A program made the position numbers and the translations under genes. The notes beneath the pieces are model-generated. The model did not search any database, was not told the origin of the DNA, and saw nothing but the letters and a program-made list of their open reading frames with translations. 43,197 nucleotides of DNA from a virus. This document shows positions 15,626-43,197 of the stretch, piece by piece. The DNA lies in the IMG/VR virus record IMGVR_UViG_3300029360_000019, one strand, 5' to 3'. How positions within the stretch are numbered: the stretch's first letter is position 1; each line of letters begins with the position of its first letter.

Positions 15626-17269
15626 TTATTTATTCTCCTTCGGCTCTGTCGGAACTACATGAGTGCCTTTTTTTGAATAGTAAATACCTGCTCGATTTGT
15701 TTTGTGATAAGCATTATTTTTATAATAACGGCCTATCGTCGCATCTGCATTTGCAAACTCTACAATTTTAAGCGCTCCATTTTTTTGGTTTTGAATAATG
15801 ACCGCCCCCGTTCCCGAGCTGCTGTCTACAAACTCTTGCGCCTCTTGCATTGTGATTGTCATCACGCTTTGCGGAGTTTTTCCATTTGAGATTCTTTGCG
15901 CCTTATATCTTTCAAACTCCATTGTTCCTTCAATGTGTCGAGCTTGTACCTGTGGCCGGATTACTGTGGAAATCTCCCCGCTTGCAATTTTTTCTTTTAG
16001 TATAGCAATATTTTTTTCGTTTTGCAACGCCGCTTGTTCTGCTTCCGATTGGCGCTTTGCTTTTAATGCTTGCGCCGCCGCCTCGCTTTTTTCGTCGCCG
16101 TAAAGCACTTTTAGTCTCTCTCTCTGCTCCGGCAGCCCCGCCGCCTTGCTAAACTCCTTGTATTTGGCATTTAAACGCCGCAGCTTAATGTTTGCGGTGG
16201 TGGCGTCGCCGGTAAGCCCTGCGGCCTCATATGCGGTTTTAAGCCGCTTTTGCTTGCGTATGGTGCGCTCTATGCGGCGCTGCATCTGCGTGGCCTCATA
16301 TGCAGTGTATTTCTTGCCGTCGTACTCGCAGCCAAGTCCGTCATCAATGTGCTGTAATTGCTCGTCTGTATAGGTGCGCTCCGACACGCCCTCCACCCAG
16401 GGATAGCGCCTATGGCGGCAGTTTGCGCCCTCCAGCCCGTCCACAGCGCCCAGTCCGCAAGCATCGTATATGCTTGGGTAAATATCGCCGGTGCGTATGC
16501 TGTAAACCTTGCCCTGCCACTCCTTATGCGATGACCACGGGGACAGGCCGGGTACATCACGCGCCCCGGCGTGGGCGGACACCTCATAATACGGGGTTTC
16601 TAAGTATTCCGCCGATTGCTCGGTATATTTGGCGCAAAGCTGGGAAACGCCCGTCATTACCGCCCTGCGGGCCGCTACATCGATAGAATCATGGTGGCCG
16701 CTCTCATAGTCAACCACCTTTAAGCCGCCGTCTGCAAGCTGCTTTACCGCCATCTTGATAGCCTGACTATAGTTGATCGCGCCGCTCTGCACCTGCATCG
16801 CCGCATTGTCAAGCGCCCATTGGTAAGCTTTGGCTGGGGGCAGCATCGTGCGCCCGTTGTCCACCAAAAAGCCCATCGACCGGGTTATGTTGCGCAAGTC
16901 CCGTTTGGTCTGCTGGTATATGGCCCAGGTGTCCTCGATGCTTACCAGCGTTTCCGGCTGAGTGATATGTGCAAGGTCAATGACGTTGGTGTAATACTGC
17001 TGATTGCGTTCCACAACATCATCAAGCAGCTTGTTTAATTTCTGCTCACTGATGCCGGTTGCTTTTTGTATGGCCTTTTTAATCTCTTTAAGGTCACTGC
17101 CATGCGCCCGCAGCGCCTTAATGTCCTGCACCGTGACCTCGTTCAGCTCGTCCGCAGCTCTTAGCCGGGAGCAGATTTCATCCAGCAGCGTGATTTCAAG
17201 CGCCCGGAACAGCTCTGCCAGTTCTTCCGGCAGCGCGTCAAGAACTTCCGGCTGAAACGGATATTTCAT
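15626..17269 (-). CDS. Head morphogenesis protein (SPP1 gp7 / Mu F family) with extra C-terminal toxin-like domain
   Basis: 547 codons after the portal block. NCRHRRYPW region typical of MuF. A coiled-coil linker is followed by about 115 aa containing QARHIEGT...IYYSKKGTHVVP. Confidence 0.85.
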   Translation of the reverse strand: MKYPFQPEVLDALPEELAELFRALEITLLDEICSRLRAADELNEVTVQDIKALRAHGSDLKEIKKAIQKATGISEQKLNKLLDDVVERNQQYYTNVIDLAHITQPETLVSIEDTWAIYQQTKRDLRNITRSMGFLVDNGRTMLPPAKAYQWALDNAAMQVQSGAINYSQAIKMAVKQLADGGLKVVDYESGHHDSIDVAARRAVMTGVSQLCAKYTEQSAEYLETPYYEVSAHAGARDVPGLSPWSSHKEWQGKVYSIRTGDIYPSIYDACGLGAVDGLEGANCRHRRYPWVEGVSERTYTDEQLQHIDDGLGCEYDGKKYTAYEATQMQRRIERTIRKQKRLKTAYEAAGLTGDATTANIKLRRLNAKYKEFSKAAGLPEQRERLKVLYGDEKSEAAAQALKAKRQSEAEQAALQNEKNIAILKEKIASGEISTVIRPQVQARHIEGTMEFERYKAQRISNGKTPQSVMTITMQEAQEFVDSSSGTGAVIIQNQKNGALKIVEFANADATIGRYYKNNAYHKTNRAGIYYSKKGTHVVPTEPKENK

Positions 17270-35857: not shown

Positions 35858-36457
35858 ATGGAAAAAACTTTGCAGGATATTTGCAGAGATGCAAAAGAGG
35901 ACCAGCATCTTACCACGCAAGACTTAGCCGATTTAACAGATCTGTCATCGTCCACGATCAGCAATTACTTTTCTGCGTCGTCAAAGGATCCAAGCCTATA
36001 CAAAATGGGGATTATATGCGCCGCCCTCGGTGTGTCTATAGATGAGTATTTTGGTATCGTAAAGAGACCAACCACGGAGGAGCAGCTGGCAGAGGCACAC
36101 AGAGCAATGGCCGATGCAGATGCAAAGCATAGCGCAGCCCTACGCATTGCGCACTTAGAGGGCGGCATGGAGCAACTGACCGGATCAGTGGCAAAGCATG
36201 AAAAAAAGGAGCGAGTATTGCAAATTTGGGTGTATATCCTGGCACTTTCGCTGTCGATTTCCGTATCCATAATATTTGGATATTTGGCGTTTGACTCAAG
36301 CGTCCCGCAAACAGGGCTTATCCGCAACGGGAAGATTACATCACTCGGCTGGATGCTATTTGCGCTACTTGCGGTGGGCGTCGGTGTAATCATTGCTTCG
36401 CTGATTAATGCGCTGCGATATTACAGGCACCATCAAACTGATAAAAATATAGGGTAG
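35858..36457 (+). CDS. Membrane-tethered XRE-type HTH protein
   Basis: N-terminal LTTQDLADLTDLSSSTISNYFS HTH, a coiled-coil middle and two C-terminal hydrophobic helices. Stop is 10 nt before the integrase start. Confidence 0.7.
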   Translation: MEKTLQDICRDAKEDQHLTTQDLADLTDLSSSTISNYFSASSKDPSLYKMGIICAALGVSIDEYFGIVKRPTTEEQLAEAHRAMADADAKHSAALRIAHLEGGMEQLTGSVAKHEKKERVLQIWVYILALSLSISVSIIFGYLAFDSSVPQTGLIRNGKITSLGWMLFALLAVGVGVIIASLINALRYYRHHQTDKNIG

Positions 36458-36467
36458 GAGGATAAAA

Positions 36468-37469
36468 ATGGGAAAAGCAATGAGGAGGGCCAACGGAACC
36501 GGGACAGTGTATAAGCTCGCCGGGCGCCGACGCAGGCCCTGGGTGGCTGCAAAGCAAAAAATCATTATAGGATATTACCCCACCAAAAAAGATGCTATAG
36601 CGGCGCTGGAACGTCTTGCAGGCAAGGATTTAACGGAGCGGTACAACATGACCTTTGCCCAGGTGTTTGACGCTTGGAAAGAGGAGCATTACAAAAAAAT
36701 AGGGCCAAACGGTATAGAAGGCTATGACGGCGCATTTAAAATTTTTGCGCCGCTGCACGACCGGAAGTTCCGGGACTTAAAAACGGCGGATTTCCAGGGC
36801 GTACTGGATGCCCATATGCATAAATCCCATAGCACTGTGTCCAAGTATAAGCAACTCATAACGCAGATGTCCACATGGGCCATGCGCGAGGAGATCATCA
36901 CAACAAATTTTGCAAAATTCGTCCAGCTCCCCGAAAACACAAAAAAAGAAAAAGAAACATTTACCGATGCTGAAATAAGCAAGCTGGAAGCGGACGGCAG
37001 CGACACCGCAAAAATTATCCTCATGCTGATTTACACAGGAATGCGCATAGGGGAATTGTTTTCCCTACCGGCTAAAGATTATCACAAAGATTATGTGGTC
37101 GGCGGTGAAAAGACGGAGGCTGGGCGAAACAGGATCATCCCAATCCGCCCCGAAGGGATCCCATACTTTGCCTATTTTGCAAATAAGGCTACCGGCCCAC
37201 TGCTCATATCCGGCTATGCTGGGGAAAAAATCCCAGCAAACTTCCGCCGCCGGGATTATTACCCGCTTTTGGAAAAATTAAAAATCCAGCGCAAAACGCC
37301 GCACTCCACCCGGCACACCTATGCAAGCTGGGCGAGAAAAGCGGGGATTGCTCCGGAGACGCTACAGAGGATCCTCGGCCACGCCAACTACTCCACTACC
37401 GCAAATATATACGTCCATACGTCAGCGGAGGAATTGGTGCAGGCCGTTAAAAAGGCGAAAATTTGTTAG
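36468..37469 (+). CDS. int: Tyrosine integrase
   Basis: RIGELFSL, HSTRHTYAS and LGHANYSTTANIYVH give the R..HxxR..Y catalytic pattern. Adjacent to the tRNA fragment. Confidence 0.9.
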   Translation: MGKAMRRANGTGTVYKLAGRRRRPWVAAKQKIIIGYYPTKKDAIAALERLAGKDLTERYNMTFAQVFDAWKEEHYKKIGPNGIEGYDGAFKIFAPLHDRKFRDLKTADFQGVLDAHMHKSHSTVSKYKQLITQMSTWAMREEIITTNFAKFVQLPENTKKEKETFTDAEISKLEADGSDTAKIILMLIYTGMRIGELFSLPAKDYHKDYVVGGEKTEAGRNRIIPIRPEGIPYFAYFANKATGPLLISGYAGEKIPANFRRRDYYPLLEKLKIQRKTPHSTRHTYASWARKAGIAPETLQRILGHANYSTTANIYVHTSAEELVQAVKKAKIC

Positions 37470-37597: not shown

Positions 37598-37642
37598 TTC
37601 ACACGCAGGAGGTCACTGGTTCGAGTCCAGCAGTCTCCACCA
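37598..37642 (+). tRNA. 3-prime half of a tRNA (anticodon loop reading CAC, Val-like) through CCA; not a complete gene
   Basis: TTCACAC / GCAGG / AGGTC / ACTGG-TTCGAGT-CCAGC / AGTCTCC-A-CCA fits anticodon loop to acceptor end. No matching 5-prime half upstream. Confidence 0.55.
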
Positions 37643-37646
37643 AAAA

Positions 37647-37686
37647 AGTCCAGGAATTTCAAGGGTTCCCGGACTTTTTTATTTTT
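37647..37686. terminator. Bidirectional hairpin terminator (tRNA-type terminator; also ends the cargo operon)
   Basis: AGTCCAGGAA / TTCCCGGACT stem, flanked by an A run and a T run. Confidence 0.65.
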
Positions 37687-37727: not shown

Positions 37728-38051
37728 TTAGGTTAGTTTTTTTAGGACGCTGTTATAAGCTTTCTCATTGACGATTTTTAGTGTGTCCATAAGCTCGTCC
37801 ATAACTTCCCACGCCCTATCCTGCGCTACATTCCCAACCGCTTTCAAAAATTCACTGCCGGATGGTTTTATTTTCTTGGCCGGCGCAGGCTCTGCAGAAT
37901 ACAGCATTGGGGGCGTTTTCGCCTGCAGTTGCCCCCCGCCGTGTTCGTTACGGATAATGTAGAGCGCCGCCAGTTTCTCATAGTTTGTCCAGCTCGATTC
38001 TTCTGTTTCAAGGCGAGCTATCCAGCGCTTGACCTCATTCTCGTCGACCAT
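37728..38051 (-). CDS. Cargo operon gene 8, hypothetical
   Basis: AAGGGGG RBS. 107 codons. C-terminal SEFLKAVGNVAQDRAWEVMDELMDTLKIVN helical motif. Confidence 0.6.
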   Translation of the reverse strand: MVDENEVKRWIARLETEESSWTNYEKLAALYIIRNEHGGGQLQAKTPPMLYSAEPAPAKKIKPSGSEFLKAVGNVAQDRAWEVMDELMDTLKIVNEKAYNSVLKKLT

Positions 38052-38066
38052 AGGGGTGCACCCCCT

Positions 38067-38474
38067 TTAGTCCTCGATCGTGTCCATGCAGCGCTGGATG
38101 GCTCTGCGGATGCTTTCGTCGTCGGCGTTGTCCAGCATTTCCTGCAACTGGCGTTTCATGTTGTCGATGCCACCATCACGGGAATAGTGGCCGCGCACAT
38201 AATGCGTGCCGCGTCTCGCATTGGACATATCGCGGTCATAAGCGCCGCGCATGCCCGACTGCCAGTCTCCGTCGCGGGAATAGCGGCGAGAATAGTCTTC
38301 ATCGCGGGAATAGCCGCCGTCTTCCATCATCTCGATCTTATCGATGTTCTTGATGGTTGCTGTCAGTTTGTGGGCAATTTCTAGGTCACCCGCACCCAAT
38401 TCGCCTTTTCGGGCCAGTTCGTCCAGCTCCTTGCAGAGCATATCCCGCAGTTCATACATAGATTTCATACCCAT
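38067..38474 (-). CDS. Cargo operon gene 7, hypothetical with Arg/Asp/Tyr/Ser-rich centre
   Basis: AAAGGAGAA RBS. MYELRDMLCKELDELARKGEL... then YSRDEDYSRRYSRDGDW...HYVRGHYSRDGG. Confidence 0.6.
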   Translation of the reverse strand: MGMKSMYELRDMLCKELDELARKGELGAGDLEIAHKLTATIKNIDKIEMMEDGGYSRDEDYSRRYSRDGDWQSGMRGAYDRDMSNARRGTHYVRGHYSRDGGIDNMKRQLQEMLDNADDESIRRAIQRCMDTIED

Positions 38475-38488
38475 TGTGTTCTCCTTTC

Positions 38489-38911
38489 TCAGCTCACACG
38501 GTCGATGGTCAGGTTGCTATTGGCAAAGCTGACCGCCTCTGCGCTGGTGTTCTTTGCTGCCACGGTCACGCAGCAGCCGCGCGGCACTTCCACGATGGCG
38601 CTGACGTAGACGTTAAAATAGTTTTCCACCGCAGCCGGGGTGACGGTCGCCGTAGCTCCGTTGAGTGCTTCGCCGTTGACAGAAAGCGCCGTAGTGATCG
38701 CGCCTACCGTGCCGCCCGTGGGGACGGCGATGTTCGCGCCAAAGCTCACCTTAAAGCGCGCCTTGCACTGCTGCGTCAGCCCGCGCAGGGTGACGAGCCC
38801 GCTGCCCTCACGGTGGACGATGCAGGGCTTGCCGCAAGCCGCCGTGGAGACCATCGGAACATTCTGGCCTGCAGGGACGGTCACGATTCCGGGATTTACA
38901 TATTCAGCCAT
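38489..38911 (-). CDS. Cargo operon gene 6, C1q/TNF-like (BclA C-terminal-domain-like) jelly-roll candidate
   Basis: Start ATG 38911 behind GAAAGGA. All-beta style pattern FKVSFGANIAVPTGGTVGAITTALSVNGEALNG...VEVPRGCCVTVAAKNTS...NLTIDRVS. The fold call is an inference. Confidence 0.55.
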   Translation of the reverse strand: MAEYVNPGIVTVPAGQNVPMVSTAACGKPCIVHREGSGLVTLRGLTQQCKARFKVSFGANIAVPTGGTVGAITTALSVNGEALNGATATVTPAAVENYFNVYVSAIVEVPRGCCVTVAAKNTSAEAVSFANSNLTIDRVS

Positions 38912-38936
38912 AATTTCAGTCCTTTCATAAAATACA

Positions 38937-38960
38937 GCGGCAGGGCTATTGCCCCGCCGC
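38937..38960 (-). terminator. Internal hairpin (partial terminator/attenuator) between cargo genes 5 and 6
   Basis: 10-bp stem GCGGCGGGGC / GCCCUGCCGC on the minus strand (one G-U), then a U-rich UGUAUUUUAU. Confidence 0.45.
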
Positions 38961-39026
38961 TTTTGTTTAGTATCGGCACGGGGCCGACCATTTCCCAACA
39001 TAGGGAAAAGCTACGCTATGCAGTTG

Positions 39027-39734
39027 TCAGCAGCCACAACAGGCAAACTGGTTGCAGCAATAGGGGTTCTGCACCGTGTAGGCCGGAATGGGAGAAGGCC
39101 GGAGCTGAGACACCAGATAACTGTTCTGCGCCGCCTGGCTTGCCGCCAGCTTCAAGCCCTGGTTCTCGGCCTGGAGGTCAGAGAGCTTGCTCTGCGTCAG
39201 GAAGTCGAGGATTGCGCGGCTGTTGCTGTTAGCGTTGTCGATGATGTCGCGGGTCGCGTTCTGCACGGTGTTGCGCGTGTCGCACGCCTGCGCCGCCATG
39301 TCATAGCGCACCTGCGCGATAGCCGCGCGATTCTCGCAGCAGCAATTTGCGGCCTGCATCTGCATGGCGTTGAGCTGCTGCATCAGCGCCGCTTGCTGGT
39401 TGCTACGGGACAGCTCGGCCTGTGCAAAGCCGTTTGCCATCGCCATGTTGGTGCCGTTGACAAGCTGCGCCTGCTGGTAAAATCCGTCGCAAAGGCCCTG
39501 ATTTACGCTGTCGATCTTGCGCTCGACATTGGCAAAATCAGAGGTCAGCACGTAGCCGTCTACGACACCGCCGGAATTGCCAGCGTTGTTGCCCCAGCCG
39601 TTGCGGCCCCAGCCGAAGAGGAAAAGAACGATAATCCAGATCCAGTTTTCGCCCCACATACCCATGCCACCGCCGTAGCTGTTCGCGGGCGCGACCGGCA
39701 TAGTCATCATGGGAGCACCGTCGGAAAGAGACAT
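39027..39734 (-). CDS. Cargo operon gene 5, membrane-anchored coiled-coil protein with Cys-rich C-terminus
   Basis: Start ATG 39734 behind AAAGGGGAG. Hydrophobic WIWIIVLFLFGW, Q/N/A-rich helices, internal CCC and terminal YCCNQFACCGC. Confidence 0.65.
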   Translation of the reverse strand: MSLSDGAPMMTMPVAPANSYGGGMGMWGENWIWIIVLFLFGWGRNGWGNNAGNSGGVVDGYVLTSDFANVERKIDSVNQGLCDGFYQQAQLVNGTNMAMANGFAQAELSRSNQQAALMQQLNAMQMQAANCCCENRAAIAQVRYDMAAQACDTRNTVQNATRDIIDNANSNSRAILDFLTQSKLSDLQAENQGLKLAASQAAQNSYLVSQLRPSPIPAYTVQNPYCCNQFACCGC

Positions 39735-39785
39735 ATTATCTCCCCTTTCATAAATTTTATTTATCAAATCGTGGCCACGATAAGA

Positions 39786-39992
39786 TCAATGGAATAAATG
39801 CTCGAACTGTTTTGCCATAGATTGAAGTTGGTTTAACTCTTGCTGGCTCATAGCCCCAGATTGCAAAAGCTTGTCGACCTCCGCTTTTGGGTTACCCTGA
39901 AAATTCGCCCTAAACTGTTGGAACTGCTGCAACATCTGCATAAAGCCGTTGCCGCCGCCGAGCGCTCCGAAAAAGGGATTATTCATCGTCAT
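39786..39992 (-). CDS. Cargo operon gene 4, small Q-rich protein
   Basis: 68 codons overlapping the end of gene 3. FMQMLQQFQQFRANFQGNP. Confidence 0.55.
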   Translation of the reverse strand: MTMNNPFFGALGGGNGFMQMLQQFQQFRANFQGNPKAEVDKLLQSGAMSQQELNQLQSMAKQFEHLFH

Positions 39993-40416
39993 CGTCCTCC
40001 TTGCGCTTCTTCTTGCCCTTCAATTCGCCCACAAGCGCCGCCAGCGCGTCAAACTCCTTGCGGGTGACAAATTCCACGCCCGGCTTTTGCGGCGCGTTAG
40101 GGGCCGTTTCTGTGCGTTCTACGAGGTCATAAATCTTGAGCGTCGGTTTCCCGCTTGCGTCTGCCTGCTTGAGGTAAACGGTGGGGGCGGTGGAATCCCA
40201 CAGCGCTACGGCAGAGTTGGGCGCGATGAGATAACCTCTTGCCTCCTGTTCTCCGCTTACCCACTGTACGCCGCCTTGCGCGATGGGGTTCTGTTGCACT
40301 GGCTGCGACATAGGCTGCTGCATGGGCTGCATCTGTGGTTGCTGCATCTGCCGCATCTGCATGAGGTTGTCCGGCATCGGCTGTGGATAATAGGGGTTGA
40401 AATAGGGATATGCCAT
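39979..40416 (-). CDS. Cargo operon gene 3, protein with Q/P/M-rich N-terminus and Lys/Asp tail
   Basis: ATG 40416 has better spacing to GGAGGA than 40422. MAYPYFNPYYPQPMPDNLMQMRQMQQPQMQPMQQPM. Confidence 0.6.
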   Translation of the reverse strand: MAYPYFNPYYPQPMPDNLMQMRQMQQPQMQPMQQPMSQPVQQNPIAQGGVQWVSGEQEARGYLIAPNSAVALWDSTAPTVYLKQADASGKPTLKIYDLVERTETAPNAPQKPGVEFVTRKEFDALAALVGELKGKKKRKEDDDDE

Positions 40417-40418
40417 GT

Positions 40419-40802
40419 TCATTCCTCCGTTTCTTTGTCCCAGAAATAAAGCGGGATTTCGTTCTCGCTGTTCCAGCTGTCATAGATGATCCCGTCCTGA
40501 ACGCACACTACATGCCCAGAGAGGGCGAGAATATATGTCCCGCGCGGGTGCTCATCGGCAAACCTGCCGACCGTGTAACAGTCCGGGCAAGTGTCCGGTA
40601 TGATGTATCTCCGGTAGCCTAAGGACCGCAGATATGCGCCCCAACAGGCGTTTGCATTGGGCAAATCGCCGTCCAAGTAGCCACGCATGCACAGCCGGAG
40701 ATAAACCTCGCCCCAATCCTTTCCCGTGGACTTACAGATCGCACGGACAGTGCAATCGGACACGTTTTTCCCGCAGGGATTTGGATTAAAATATTTATAC
40801 AT
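40419..40802 (-). CDS. Cargo operon gene 2, papain-like cysteine peptidase fold candidate
   Basis: Start ATG 40802. Ordered DCTVRAI (Cys), LSGHVVCV (His), YDSWNS (Asp/Asn). The catalytic assignment is an inference. Confidence 0.55.
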   Translation of the reverse strand: MYKYFNPNPCGKNVSDCTVRAICKSTGKDWGEVYLRLCMRGYLDGDLPNANACWGAYLRSLGYRRYIIPDTCPDCYTVGRFADEHPRGTYILALSGHVVCVQDGIIYDSWNSENEIPLYFWDKETEE

Positions 40803-40935
40803 GATTGCAACCCCTATATAGGCTTTCAGCAATTTCCACATACGCTAAAAGTCCCTGGGGATCGTCTGCGTACAGAATGCAAATATCCTGCGCCATTTGC
40901 GCGGTAAACCCGCATTTGATTAAGCGCTCGTACAT
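40795..40935 (-). CDS. Cargo operon gene 1, small protein (46 aa)
   Basis: AAGGAGG RBS 7 nt before ATG 40935. Its end overlaps the gene 2 start by 8 nt. Translated by hand. Confidence 0.45.
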   Translation of the reverse strand: MYERLIKCGFTAQMAQDICILYADDPQGLLAYVEIAESLYRGCNHV

Positions 40936-41040
40936 ATTCCCGCCTCCTTGCCTCTATAATAAAAGAAATCCGGGCAAATAAACTGCCCGGATTCTGCCTT
41001 GATTCTGCAATAATGTAGTTACAGTGTACACCAATTGTGT

Positions 41041-41084
41041 GCAAAAACGAAAAATAGCCGCACCCAAAAAGGGCGCGGCTACTT
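41041..41084 (-). terminator. Intrinsic terminator after the lysis-region genes
   Basis: Minus strand UAGCCGCGCCC / GGGUGCGGCUA followed by UUUUUCGUUUUU. Confidence 0.7.
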
Positions 41085-41360
41085 TTAGGAATTGAATGCA
41101 TCCGCCAGTTTTTGGTATGCGCGGCGGCGCAATTTGTAAAATCCATCTACGCTGATATGTAGTTTTGCCGCCGTCTGTACGCAGGTGCGGCCAAAAATGT
41201 CCACGTCAATTACACAGGTTTCCTCGTCTTCCGGTAGCCCTACCGCACGGATTGTTTCTGTGGCGCGGCATGGTGCCATAGTGGATAGTTTTTTGCGGAT
41301 TCTTTTGTGCTGATCTATCATTTCCCACGGTGTGCCGTGGAGGTGCGGATGTTTATGCAC
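41085..41360 (-). CDS. Small protein with sigma-70 region-4-like HTH
   Basis: RTCVQTAAKLHISVDGFYKLRRRAYQKLA. The start codon is uncertain (GTG 41360 lacks an RBS). Confidence 0.5.
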   Translation of the reverse strand: MHKHPHLHGTPWEMIDQHKRIRKKLSTMAPCRATETIRAVGLPEDEETCVIDVDIFGRTCVQTAAKLHISVDGFYKLRRRAYQKLADAFNS

Positions 41361-41418: not shown

Positions 41419-42228
41419 TTATTTCAGCAGAAAATTCCAGCTGGCGGCACCGAGGATGCCATCCACGCCGAGGTCGTGGTCAGCCTGCATCCGGCGCAGA
41501 CCGGCCTCCATCTTGGGGCCAAAGAGCTTGTCACCGCTCCAGATCTCGTCAGGGTAATAGCCCTTGTCCTTCATCAGCAGCATGGCAGCCCGGACGTCGT
41601 TGCCCTCCATGCCACGGCGCAGCATACGCAGTTCCATGTTGATCGTCTCCTCCTTCGTCGTCGGTGCGGGTGCGGGCTGCTCGTTCAGCAGCGCCTTGAC
41701 GCTGGCCTTGAACGCCTCCCACTCCGCATTGTTCTTCCCTGCCATCTGCCGGGGGCAGGACTTCCCGGTCACGTCGTAGTGCCGCAGGACGTAGGTGTCC
41801 ACGCCGGAGATGCCCAGCAGCTTGCACAGCTCCGCCGTCAGTGCCGCAGCGTTGGCCTTGGTGCGCTCGGAAACATGGTAGTTTCCGGAGCAGCACATCT
41901 CGATCGAGATACTGTTGGTGTTGCGGCAAGACGGGTGTACGGGGTTATTAGAGCCTACCGCCCACGCCCGGTCACAGGCCGGTACGGACTGGTAGATGCT
42001 GTCCTCATCCACGAAGTAGTGTGCGCTGGCCTCCCGGTCGCCGCCTGCGAAATACTTGCAGTTGGCCTTGGCGGTGTCGCTGACGTTGCCCGTGTAGTGC
42101 AGCACCACAAAGGCCACGTCCCGCCCGCCCAGCCGGTCATAGGTCTCCTTGCTGGCCGGGATGCTGGTGTTGATGGGGATGCCGCCCGCCTTGGCGATGG
42201 GATATGCGGCAGTAATGCGCTTACCCAT
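41419..42228 (-). CDS. Endolysin: N-acetylmuramoyl-L-alanine amidase (Amidase_2/PGRP type) plus PG_binding_1-like C-terminal domain
   Basis: VVLHYTGN...SAHYFVD...ISIEMC...LRHYDVTGKSCP amidase pattern. C-terminal LRRGMEGNDVRAAMLLMKDKGYY...DGILGAASW repeat. Confidence 0.9.
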   Translation of the reverse strand: MGKRITAAYPIAKAGGIPINTSIPASKETYDRLGGRDVAFVVLHYTGNVSDTAKANCKYFAGGDREASAHYFVDEDSIYQSVPACDRAWAVGSNNPVHPSCRNTNSISIEMCCSGNYHVSERTKANAAALTAELCKLLGISGVDTYVLRHYDVTGKSCPRQMAGKNNAEWEAFKASVKALLNEQPAPAPTTKEETINMELRMLRRGMEGNDVRAAMLLMKDKGYYPDEIWSGDKLFGPKMEAGLRRMQADHDLGVDGILGAASWNFLLK

Positions 42229-42231
42229 ATC

Positions 42232-42504
42232 TCACTCCCCCTTGCTCAGCTGCTTGACAGCCTGATTGATGCCGGTGGCCGCCAGACCGCTGACGATGCC
42301 CACGGCAATGGCGGTGATGGGGTCGCCCGCCGGGAAGTCCGGGATGGGTGCCAGATAGTAGCTGACAGCCCCCAGCAGACCGCCGCAGACCCCGCACAGG
42401 ATGGGGATCCACTTGTCGTTCATGCTGCTGGCCTTGCCCACCAGACCCACGAGGTAGGTGATGACGGTGATGACCGCCACGCTTGCGATGCCAAAAGTTT
42501 CCAT
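42232..42504 (-). CDS. Holin
   Basis: Start ATG 42504 behind AAGGAGAA. 90 aa with three hydrophobic segments. Immediately upstream of the endolysin. Confidence 0.8.
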   Translation of the reverse strand: METFGIASVAVITVITYLVGLVGKASSMNDKWIPILCGVCGGLLGAVSYYLAPIPDFPAGDPITAIAVGIVSGLAATGINQAVKQLSKGE

Positions 42505-42609
42505 AATTTCTCCTTTCCGTGCCCGATTCGGGCACACAAAAAATGTTGACAAGTCTTTGTTTATCGGTTTAGTCGGTATTGTACATTCACTACAGTCTCC
42601 TTTCTTTTT

Positions 42610-43197
42610 TTAATTCTCCGTATAATCGTAAATGATGGTGGCCTTGCTCGCACCCCAAGGAGCATTTGCTACTTGCCCCTGCGACCACGGAACATAGATG
42701 GTGGTTAGGTTGGAGCACCCGTTAAATGCAGAAGAGTGGATGGTCTTTGGGTTTCCCTCGAATGTAATACTTGTTAGCCCGGTGCAATTAGCAAACACAC
42801 CGAAACCAATGTTCGTTATCCCAGGTGGCAGCCTAGTTATTGCCAGGTTGCGGCAACCATTGAACGCATAGTAACCGATGCGTGTTATTCCAGACGGCAG
42901 ACTAGTTAGTGCAAGTTTGGGGCAGCTTTGAAACGCATAGCTACCGATATTTGTCATGCCAGACGGCAAGCTGGTTAATGCAAGGTTGGGGCAATTATTA
43001 AACGCATAGTCACTGATGCTTGTTACCCCAGACGGCAGGCTGGTTAATGCAAGGTTGGGACAACCGCTAAACGCACTGTAACCAATGGTCGTCAAATCAC
43101 CCGGAAGTGTAGGGCTGACAGCCGTGCGTTCTATCACTGCCTTGAAGCTGCCGCCACCCTCCAAAGTTCCGGTCACGCCGCCGATCACCACATCCTT
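42610..43197 (-). CDS. 3-prime part of the BspA-type LRR protein gene (see 1..357)
   Basis: Six 23-aa units of the LPSG.T.I..YAF..C..L type (LRR_5-like). The ORF runs off the window end and resumes at base 123 of the overlap. Confidence 0.8.
   Translation of the reverse strand, partial: KDVVIGGVTGTLEGGGSFKAVIERTAVSPTLPGDLTTIGYSAFSGCPNLALTSLPSGVTSISDYAFNNCPNLALTSLPSGMTNIGSYAFQSCPKLALTSLPSGITRIGYYAFNGCRNLAITRLPPGITNIGFGVFANCTGLTSITFEGNPKTIHSSAFNGCSNLTTIYVPWSQGQVANAPWGASKATIIYDYTEN
42694..43107 (-). repeat. Six tandem 69-bp LRR-coding units
   Basis: Neighbouring units share long identical nucleotide runs, e.g. AGACGGCA.GCTGGTTAATGCAAGGTTGGG. Confidence 0.8.

Follow-up and report, generated by a model that had tools for sequence, protein, structure and literature searches.

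The phage morons, or lysogenic-conversion cassettes, that lie between the lysis genes and the phage attachment site (attP) include the staphylococcal immune-evasion clusters and the streptococcal toxin genes. Here we describe a block of eight genes, g1 to g8, that occupies this position in a viral DNA of 43,197 nt (IMG/VR record IMGVR_UViG_3300029360_000019; the whole stretch is called the window hereafter), which is the circularly permuted genome of a temperate siphovirus coding mostly on the minus strand. The block shares with the morons its position, its organisation as a terminator-bounded unit, its temperate carriers and its neighbouring tRNA attP, but differs from the known lysis-attP cassettes in comprising seven to nine genes in a fixed order, in encoding no secreted products, and in being present in every relative examined as well as in an integrase-less phage. 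It is a self-contained, terminator-bounded transcription unit that is exchanged between phages, and its carriers are siphophages of the Oscillospirales and Lachnospirales.

Individual products recall other described systems. The genes of the spanins (Rz/Rz1), which carry out the third lysis step, also follow the endolysin gene, and g5 resembles these proteins in its N-terminal hydrophobic segment, long helical region and conserved cysteines; its profile is in addition borderline to class I viral fusion proteins. The cassette differs from the spanins in that it has no lipoprotein partner, far more genes, terminators between lysin and cassette, hosts without an outer membrane and an opposite topology suggested by charges. 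A spanin identity was rejected, as none of the eight products contains a lipobox and the hosts, Oscillospiraceae and Lachnospiraceae, are not diderm. The g2 protein is similar in sequence to the phage papain-like proteins of phrog_3754, named 'putative peptidase' in Bacillus Tsamsa-like phages, whose genes are solitary among small early genes. For g6, the closest parallel is the BxpB/ExsFA-BclA anchoring module of the Bacillus cereus-group exosporium (PDB 8d02, 7r1m and 9h3d; PMC10470788), which has the same stand-alone format of ~140-170 aa and TNF/C1q-like fold and, like the cassette, carries no signal peptide and is made in the cytoplasm with Cys-rich, low-complexity partners. In Foldseek comparisons, g6 matches these exosporium proteins best (E 3e-4 to 1e-3; template modelling (TM) score 0.5-0.6). 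Compared with them, the cassette has no collagen-like partner, is phage-borne and resides in hosts that include non-sporulating genera, while the sequence similarity between g6 and BclA is limited to BclA_C matches that are sub-threshold or confined to divergent members, and the g6 model is of low confidence. In the literature on prophage-borne exosporium, appendage or sporulation genes we found nothing describing this block. No described multi-gene system shares its architecture, and we rate it as lying outside known kinds, a rating drawn from the absence of matches and not from a demonstrated mechanism.

A terminator-bounded unit shared between phage backbones

All eight open reading frames (ORFs) are on the minus strand and span 37728-40935, between the holin and amidase genes and the attP core. 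The initial annotation had described eight co-directional genes at this span as one unit of unassigned function; coordinates and description were borne out, and synteny confirms the co-inheritance. On the basis of homologue lengths and family alignments, the start of g2 was corrected to 40802 (MYKYFNP, 127 aa) from 40841 and that of g5 to 39734 (MSLSDG, 235 aa) from a TTG at 39767; the start of g6 was set at 38911 (MAEYVNPG, 140 aa), where the ORF list had a longer ORF of 170 aa. Stop and start codons overlap at g1/g2 (8 nt), g2/g3 (ATGA) and g3/g4 (8-14 nt), and a purine-rich Shine-Dalgarno sequence (GGAGG, GAAAGGA or AGGGGG) precedes every gene. The earlier description of stacked overlaps and GGAGG-type ribosome-binding sites (RBSs) therefore holds for g1 to g4 with respect to the overlaps and for all genes with respect to the Shine-Dalgarno sequences, but not for the remaining junctions, where gaps of 14-51 nt (g4/g5, g6/g7 and g7/g8) and a spacer of 115 nt (g5/g6) separate the genes. 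The eight genes and hth91, a putative regulatory gene 5' of g1, are under purifying selection, with a median ratio of nonsynonymous to synonymous substitution rates (dN/dS) ranging from 0.055 (g6) to 0.22 (g1 and hth91). Six of the eight genes match PHROG families at E 7e-10 to 6e-57, all of them function-unknown. The low dN/dS, the PHROG matches and the conserved gene order together argue that g1 to g8 are more than chance ORFs. No paralogues of the cassette genes were found elsewhere in the window.

In 89 loci recovered via g6 and 58 genome loci recovered via g2, down to 42% g2 identity, the genes follow each other as g2-g3-g4-g5-g6-g7 on every contig long enough to hold them; g8 is usually present in these loci, and g1 and hth91 accompany the block in closer relatives. 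The families hence co-occur outside the window phage, in about 150 loci of fixed order. At least four unrelated phage backbones carry the block. The window type combines Amidase_2 with a tyrosine integrase, whereas a second backbone has a CHAP lysin and a serine recombinase and encodes a g5 protein identical to one of the window type. In a third, represented by 43-kb phages (L005-L007 and L009; gene 1 to ~6100), the block directly follows a single LPD23/MuF_C polyvalent protein of 3266-3759 aa, and further backbones have GH25 or CHAP/Amidase_3 lysins. Because the same block, with identical g5, occurs in backbones with different tails, lysins and recombinases, it does not appear to be tied to a particular virion. 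The g5 family comprises at least 7996 clusters at 90% identity and the g6 family at least ~8000 candidates among 90%-identity clusters; the block is common to thousands of phages of gut and rumen Clostridia and is among the commonest in phages of human-gut and rumen Oscillospiraceae and their relatives.

Host assignments are mostly to Oscillospiraceae, Acutalibacteraceae, Ruminococcus, Faecalibacterium and Pseudobutyrivibrio. In integrated prophages the block is the last phage unit before host DNA, which confirms its proposed place beside attP. A cultured lysogen, Vescimonas fastidiosa MM35, contains the full set of hth91 and g1 to g8 (block at ~250.9-254.6 kb of NZ_AP023416), with the same terminator and then an intact tRNA-Val behind it. 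Butyrivibrio phage Ceridwen has g2 to g8 after its lysin, between predicted terminators, and has no integrase; an extra gene of 264 aa stands between its g6 and g7. Ceridwen has been seen growing lytically only (PMC7372960). At one prophage end on a 160-kb host contig (L154 12977-13873), a 298-aa ORF of the GerA family overlaps the end of g8, with SpoIID adjacent; this germination gene may have been truncated by the prophage insertion. Elsewhere, on a 120-kb contig with no other phage genes nearby (L008 7339-8818), a remnant made up of truncated g5, g6 and g7 lies beside an ISL3 transposase among host metabolic genes.

From the amidase to the integrase, the minus-strand order is hth91, two hairpins with U runs, g1 to g8 and a third terminator. 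The first hairpin (T1; 41050-41086, minus strand) is an intrinsic terminator directly 3' of hth91, with a 16-bp stem and a U run (-27.7 kcal/mol, z -7.6). A second, terminator-like hairpin with a U run (T2; 40966-40994, minus strand; -19.6 kcal/mol, z -5.3) is found ~30 nt before the g1 start codon, and a hairpin and T run just 5' of g1 are also present in several cassette variants. Downstream of the block, an intrinsic terminator (T3; 37647-37686, minus strand; -19.8 kcal/mol, z -3.5, then a U run) abuts the tRNA fragment, and an equal hairpin precedes the host tRNA-Val in the V. fastidiosa prophage. Both bounding terminators named in the initial annotation are thus present, while the second upstream one (40994-40966) had been missed. 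The attP core (37602-37642, plus strand) corresponds to the 3' 41 nt of tRNA-Val, with an exact match in at least 120 Oscillospiraceae genomes, and falls within tRNA-Val(CAC) in loci L160 and L182.

A search for relatives by the amidase only is independent of the cassette, and all 38 loci found in this way that have at least 4.3 kb downstream carry a cassette, which is of the window type (type I) in 26 and of a second type (type II) in 12. Type II (L310 7909-10411 and 11 similar loci, with an amidase ~96% identical to that of the window) consists, in order, of an hth91 homologue, g1, g3, g4, a g5-like gene and genes for a different, 139-aa BclA_C-like protein and a rubrerythrin-like protein of 103 aa; it lacks g2, g7, g8 and the RNA element described below, so that g3 and g4 are found in both types. 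The two types occur behind amidases ~95-99% identical to that of the window. The 139-aa protein matches BclA_C (PF18573) at E 1.4e-4 over profile positions 6-126 of 128, its 22.1 bits falling short of the Pfam cutoff of 38. What is conserved at minimum is g3-g4-g5 together with a BclA-C-like protein, and close relatives carry alternative alleles; g2, g7, g8, g1 and hth91 are frequent additions to that core. As in a moron, the block lies between late/lysis genes and attP and has its own terminators. The patchy presence and restriction to temperate phages that would go with a moron were not observed, and the original description as a cargo operon is weakened by the 38 filled loci and by the presence of the block in integrase-less Ceridwen.

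Within type I, identities are mosaic by gene, with g4, g5 and g7 at 57-70% where g6 is at 94-100%. Homing-endonuclease genes of the HNH/NUMOD4 kind, coded on the opposite strand, interrupt some cassettes between g4 and g5 (L091/L092 9284-9880; L050 7847-8692), and insertions of ~1 kb are present between g5 and g6 (spacers of L096 and L102), a pattern more usual for conserved core phage genes. The mosaic identities, and the two cassette types behind nearly identical amidases, would suit superinfection exclusion or another anti-phage or counter-defence function, in which a membrane-tethered complex blocks competitors and the alleles embody different specificities. The prophage end where the block resides is a known hot spot for exclusion and defence genes, and the block's own terminators, its neighbouring regulators and a predicted membrane-associated protein (g5) would be consistent with such a role. 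Against it, nine proteins had no PADLOC match at E <= 1, domain searches turned up nothing of the nuclease, NTPase, NADase or sensor kind, the architecture that fills the locus is the same every time and not a choice of varied systems, and conservation is very high (g6 dN/dS 0.055); to our knowledge, exclusion systems also consist of one or two genes. We consider exclusion rather unlikely, and for the new exclusion system envisaged at first no positive evidence emerged.

Predicted folds of the products

Pfam, NCBIfam and PADLOC searches with the window proteins gave nothing above noise. When divergent members of g1, g3, g4, g8, hth91 and of g2, g5 and g7 were searched against Pfam, only Sigma70_r4_2 for hth91 and a fused DUF7841 were returned. 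No Pfam, NCBIfam or PDB relatives were found for g3, g4, g5, g7 and g8, and PDB sequence and profile searches for g2, g3, g6, g7 and g8 likewise gave no relatives. Judged by sequence, none of the eight products has a signal peptide, lipobox or sortase (LPXTG) motif.

The best-modelled product is g2 (40419-40802, minus strand), a predicted papain-like Cys-His-Asp thiol enzyme of 127 aa with a conserved CPDC motif and a match to phrog_3754 at 3.9e-33. Across an alignment of 40 sequences, H97 and D108 are invariant and C17 is near-invariant, absent only from N-terminally truncated entries. In the AlphaFold2 (AF2) model, with a predicted local distance difference test score (pLDDT) of 93.4, C17 opens the helix 17-26, H97 lies one residue before the strand 98-102 and D108 ends the strand 105-108; alignment and model accordingly agree on the C...H...D order, with the Cys at a helix N-terminus, that is expected of papain-like enzymes. 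The PDB fold neighbours, none at E <= 1e-3, are Josephin-2 (E 0.043, probability 0.77) and AvrPphB (0.21), then Tae4, TssM and NlpC/P60, and at E <= 1e-3 the fold is shared by 23 BFVD phage proteins, all uncharacterised. The three residues, the model and the weak papain-like neighbours all lend support to the candidate assignment made in the initial annotation. A Tgl-type transglutaminase was rejected, as there was no Pfam or NCBIfam match and no transglutaminase among the PDB or BFVD neighbours; GerQ/Tgl-type cross-linking was dropped since no homology was found. Relatives detected by tblastn have 34-39% identity in Bacillus Tsamsa-like phages and Geobacillus GBK2, 33-35% in Lak phages and ~24% in Pseudomonas phages. 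In both contexts examined (Geobacillus GBK2 and Bacillus Kirov) the relative is alone among small uncharacterised genes, adjoining recombination genes in GBK2. Because the relatives are solitary early genes in virulent Bacillus and Geobacillus phages and occur also in Pseudomonas and Lak phages, the g2 enzyme most likely acts inside the infected cell.

The smaller and low-complexity products offer fewer clues. The 46-aa g1 protein (40795-40935, minus strand) features the motif MYERLxxCGFTxxMAxDI, conserved across 21 distinct variants, and is missing from more distant cassettes. A Q/P/M/Y-rich N-terminus, a conserved domain (WVxGExxAxxYxVAPNxxVxLWD...YLKxxDxSG) and a charged KKKRKEDDDDE tail make up g3 (39979-40422, minus strand; 147 aa; phrog_21718), while g4 (39786-39992, minus strand; 68 aa; phrog_22984) is Q/M/F-rich with only faint STI1-like matches (rad23 0.13; STI1-HOP_DP 0.0085). 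Conserved, helical-looking ends flank a Y/S/R/D/G low-complexity core in g7 (38067-38474, minus strand; 135 aa; phrog_28802). Conserved N- and C-terminal segments characterise g8 (37728-38051, minus strand; 107 aa), which is present in most, not all, cassettes and of which one homologue is fused to DUF7841; g7 and g8 are unrelated to each other by hhalign.

In g5 (39027-39734, minus strand; 235 aa; phrog_16490), a conserved N-terminal peptide (MSLSD..MPVAP) and Gly-rich flanks round a short hydrophobic segment are followed by a long region, helical-looking from its sequence, that contains a CCC motif, and by a Cys/Gly C-terminal tail, with 10 Cys in total. The hydrophobic stretch reaches a maximum Kyte-Doolittle value of 1.23 in a 19-residue window; the acidic residues before it and the Arg after it weakly suggest that most of g5 faces the cytoplasm. 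Borderline matches of the g5 profile to influenza HA2 and fusion proteins in the PDB (E 0.02-0.2) were not relied on as a sign of kinship, each matched stretch being non-significant alone and the similarity probably composition-driven.

The most conserved gene of the block is g6 (38489-38911, minus strand; 140 aa; phrog_20016; dN/dS 0.055), which is predicted to encode a stand-alone BclA-C/BxpB-like beta protein of the C1q/TNF type. Close relatives all retain four cysteines (C30, C49, C113 and C114). The AF2 model is all-beta but of low confidence (pLDDT 61.1), and its top 50 Foldseek PDB matches are nearly all BxpB/ExsFA/ExsF, BclA, TNF ligands (4-1BBL/EDA), C1q and phage knobs (E 3e-4 to 4e-3, TM 0.36-0.62, root-mean-square deviation ~10 A). 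BclA_C is matched by 4 of 62 divergent family members (best 7.3e-7), but not by the window g6 at E <= 1 or by ten further g6 representatives. At 50% identity the family has 652 representatives, the full-length ones being ~135-157 aa long and stand-alone. The jelly-roll candidate proposed from the sequence gains support from the all-beta model (pLDDT 61), the fold neighbours and the divergent BclA_C matches. We rejected BclA proper, in which an N-terminal targeting peptide and collagen-like GXX repeats precede the C-terminal domain, as an identity for g6, as g6 and the 652 representatives are stand-alone proteins without a repeat region.

Taken at its strongest, the idea of the initial annotation would be a lysogenic-conversion operon that builds a cross-linked, exosporium-like protein layer or appendage on the lysogen or its spores, with a BxpB/BclA-C-like anchor, a Cys-rich partner, a Gln- and Tyr/Arg-rich matrix, a GerE-like regulator and a papain-like enzyme for processing or cross-linking. 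The closest folds of g6 are indeed exosporium BxpB, ExsFA, ExsF and the BclA C-terminal domain, with BclA_C matches in the family; the products lack signal peptides, as spore coat and exosporium proteins do; and the composition is suitable (10 Cys in g5, Q-rich g3 and g4, YSRD-rich g7). The weak GerE matches of hth91 and the adjacency of the block to attP would agree with such a role, and one prophage lies beside GerA and SpoIID, so that its host has sporulation and germination genes. However, the block is also found in Butyrivibrio phages and in bins assigned to Faecalibacterium and Ruminococcus, genera that are non-sporulating, as well as in a lytic phage without integrase. Domain searches gave no GerQ, Tgl, CotY/ExsY or other coat-family match, the fold neighbours of g2 include no transglutaminase, and there is no apparent export route to the vegetative cell surface. 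A role specific to spores was dropped, since several hosts do not sporulate, and we regard a conversion layer in general as unlikely. The envelope or surface assembly suggested in the initial annotation fared no better, as signal peptide, lipobox and sortase motif are absent and g5 has a short hydrophobic stretch with its bulk suggested to be cytoplasmic.

The fold neighbours of g6 also include TNF-like knobs (the cyanophage A-1(L) short fibre, the phi812 spike and the BC2L-C lectin) and could point to a virion accessory, with g5 as trimeric fibre shaft, g6 as TNF-like distal knob and the rest as chaperones and maturation protease; the resulting side fibre or decoration would recognise glycans of the host or of mucosa. 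Mosaicism and accompanying chaperones are typical of fibre modules, and the block is at the end of the late region. Yet identical g5 is found in phages with unrelated tail and baseplate genes and no matching attachment site, the would-be receptor-binding g6 is the most conserved and not the most variable gene, terminators split the block from the late operon, and a Gly-rich hydrophobic N-terminus is atypical of fibres. We judge a virion role to be quite improbable.

Regulatory elements and neighbouring genes

The gene upstream of the first hairpin, hth91 (41085-41321, minus strand), is predicted to encode a helix-turn-helix (HTH) protein of the sigma-70 region-4 type of ~78 aa; its likely start is the ATG at 41321, with the frame open from a GTG at 41360. 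In most loci a homologue with 40-100% identity lies 5' of the cassette, also in loci with different lysis genes. Of five divergent members, four match Sigma70_r4_2 (best 2.9e-9), with weak GerE matches in addition, and the type II homologue scores 4.5e-5 and 23.4 bits, below the cutoff of 25.7; the window hth91 itself has no Pfam match. The gene closes the lysis transcription unit and probably encodes a DNA binder of the region-4 type; it would be a small regulator, absent from the initial annotation, that travels with the cassette. In some phages, hth91 and g1 are separated by inserted variable genes (XRE, RHH and others).

A putative promoter -10 and leader of the cassette (TATTATAGAGGCAAGGAGG) lie at 40936-40965 on the minus strand, and a TAYNATWGRGGCAA..AAGGAGG-like string recurs 5' of g1 in otherwise differing spacers. 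No consensus -35 was found upstream of g1, and promoter scans of the locus gave scores no better than shuffled controls. Some variants have direct repeats (TTGACCAAAnnnTGACCAAAnnnTGACCA) just 5' of g1 (upstream regions of L054, L045, L053, L068, L070 and L082; L064 6292-7702), and several of them contain opposite-strand insertions of 1.1-1.7 kb, including an XRE-type gene in L064. These repeats and insertions may form a dedicated switch for the cassette.

A structured RNA element of three hairpins (38927-39014, minus strand) occupies the g5/g6 junction. The internal hairpin reported previously at 38937-38960 is present (38961-38936) and proved to be part of this conserved element, whose last hairpin is a terminator-like stem with a U run. 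It begins with a hairpin that varies in sequence and length but retains its pairing, followed by an ATGKTC string and a second hairpin (UCGGC...GCCGA); a spacer then leads to the GC-rich terminator-like stem with its U run and the g6 RBS, GAAAGGA. In a covariation analysis of 26 sequences, 88% of cells were paired and 13 pairs had changed on both sides, and 0 of 500 shuffles were as good. A covariance model found one match per locus in 126 loci, always at the g5/g6 junction, and one marginal other match in 2.3 Mb. The element is missing in type II and Lachnospiraceae-type cassettes, with a g5-g6 distance of 12-18 nt in the latter, and is an add-on to the core cassette. Searches of Rfam with the element and the terminators gave no family, the sole overlap being rpsL_pseudo (18.4 bits versus 70, E 1.7). 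With its GC-rich stem and U run directly 5' of the g6 RBS, the element resembles the intrinsic-terminator leaders and attenuators found within operons, from which it differs by two more conserved hairpins, the lack of a conserved alternative pairing and the lack of an Rfam match. The effect on the dose of g6 to g8 that the initial annotation had proposed for the hairpin is plausible. A leader peptide read from the ATGKTC after hairpin 1 was rejected because it meets stops within 3-6 codons in several variants, as was an antiterminator pairing between hairpin 2 and the terminator, whose complementarity is not conserved. Several variants have an extra ORF of 71 aa between the element and g6 (L050 9793-10008 and similar loci).

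The structural genes of the window comprise the portal, a MuF-like minor capsid protein, the major capsid protein, the tape measure and a DUF859/Gp10_C tail protein. Domain matches identify a Phage_holin_5_2 holin (42232-42552), which comes after a BspA-type leucine-rich repeat (LRR) protein in gene order, an Amidase_2 + PG_binding_1 endolysin (41419-42228) and a tyrosine integrase (36468-37469, plus strand). The BspA-type protein (LRR_5, E 3.6e-47; 42610-43191, minus strand) is located between the tail genes and the holin; its ORF extends toward the window end, and in relatives the protein is 392 aa long. The MuF-like protein (Phage_min_cap2; 15626-17269, minus strand) has a C-terminal Ntox50 toxin domain (E 2.6e-15) and is therefore a MuF-toxin fusion of the polymorphic-toxin type. 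An XRE-type HTH protein of 199 aa (35858-36457, plus strand) adjoins the integrase; its hydrophobic C-terminal half resembles a pair of membrane segments, and it could be a repressor-like protein anchored in the membrane.

Possible roles of the cassette

Strict synteny, the identical g5 in unrelated backbones, carriage by Ceridwen, the always-filled locus, purifying selection, the homing-endonuclease and other insertions, the absence of Sec, lipoprotein and sortase signals, the g2 and g6 folds, the solitary g2 relatives and the place of hth91 in the lysis unit lead us to favour, tentatively and as a possible rather than a probable reading, a core late role directed at the host cell and not at the virion. 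It would be exerted at or beneath the membrane as the infection cycle draws to a close, and would extend the lysis/exit module. An optional lysogenic-conversion cargo is less likely. The lack of signal peptides, the lack of defence matches and the always-filled locus are the reasons why neither an envelope-surface assembly nor ordinary optional cargo is favoured. In its genetics the cassette may be likened to holin/lysin modules, which are similarly host-lineage specific, backbone-independent, always present and endowed with alternative alleles.

On the molecular level, the products would be made and assembled in the cytoplasm, as no product has an export signal, and would reach beyond it only via the holin or the membrane. 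We envisage g5 as a membrane-associated, helical, Cys-rich scaffold, g6 as a trimeric jelly-roll hub of the BxpB/BclA-C type, and g3, g4, g7 and g8 as partner or chaperone proteins rich in low-complexity sequence. The papain-like thiol enzyme g2 would cut or modify a cassette partner or a host protein, and the three-hairpin element after g5 could act as a leaky terminator or stabiliser that provides differing doses of g1-g5 and g6-g8.

Several observations weigh against this late, host-directed function. Two strong terminators intervene between the lysis genes and the block, and hth91 and g1 can be separated by variable cargo (XRE, RHH and others); both features fit an autonomous moron. In phages with the polyvalent protein of the 3500-3760-aa class the block follows that protein and not the lysin. 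A conflict or exclusion function, too, would be compatible with the allelic types and with the mosaicism from gene to gene. The g6 model has a pLDDT of 61 and the window g6 is without a Pfam BclA_C match, while the suggested anchor and topology of g5 derive from a weak maximum of hydrophobicity and a handful of charged residues. Moreover, seven or eight genes are more than any lysis accessory known to us needs, and the hosts (Oscillospiraceae and Lachnospiraceae) are monoderm, with no outer membrane to breach.

A further alternative, which we hold to be improbable, is a new intracellular structure that the phage would assemble in the cytoplasm late in infection from a membrane-tethered, helical, Cys-rich scaffold, a BxpB-like trimeric hub and a matrix of several low-complexity proteins, with papain-like processing and control by a region-4-only factor and the RNA element. 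It would form a coat- or exosporium-like layer or an occlusion matrix round the progeny or under the membrane, and aid exit, survival or transmission of gut phages.

The block is a good experimental target because it is abundant and because a cultured lysogen and a cultured lytic phage exist, so that it is testable in two cultured systems, V. fastidiosa MM35 and Butyrivibrio fibrisolvens DSM 3071 with Ceridwen. Its function, once worked out, would annotate thousands of phage genomes at once and could bring to light a step not yet recognised in the phage life cycle in thin-walled anaerobic Firmicutes.

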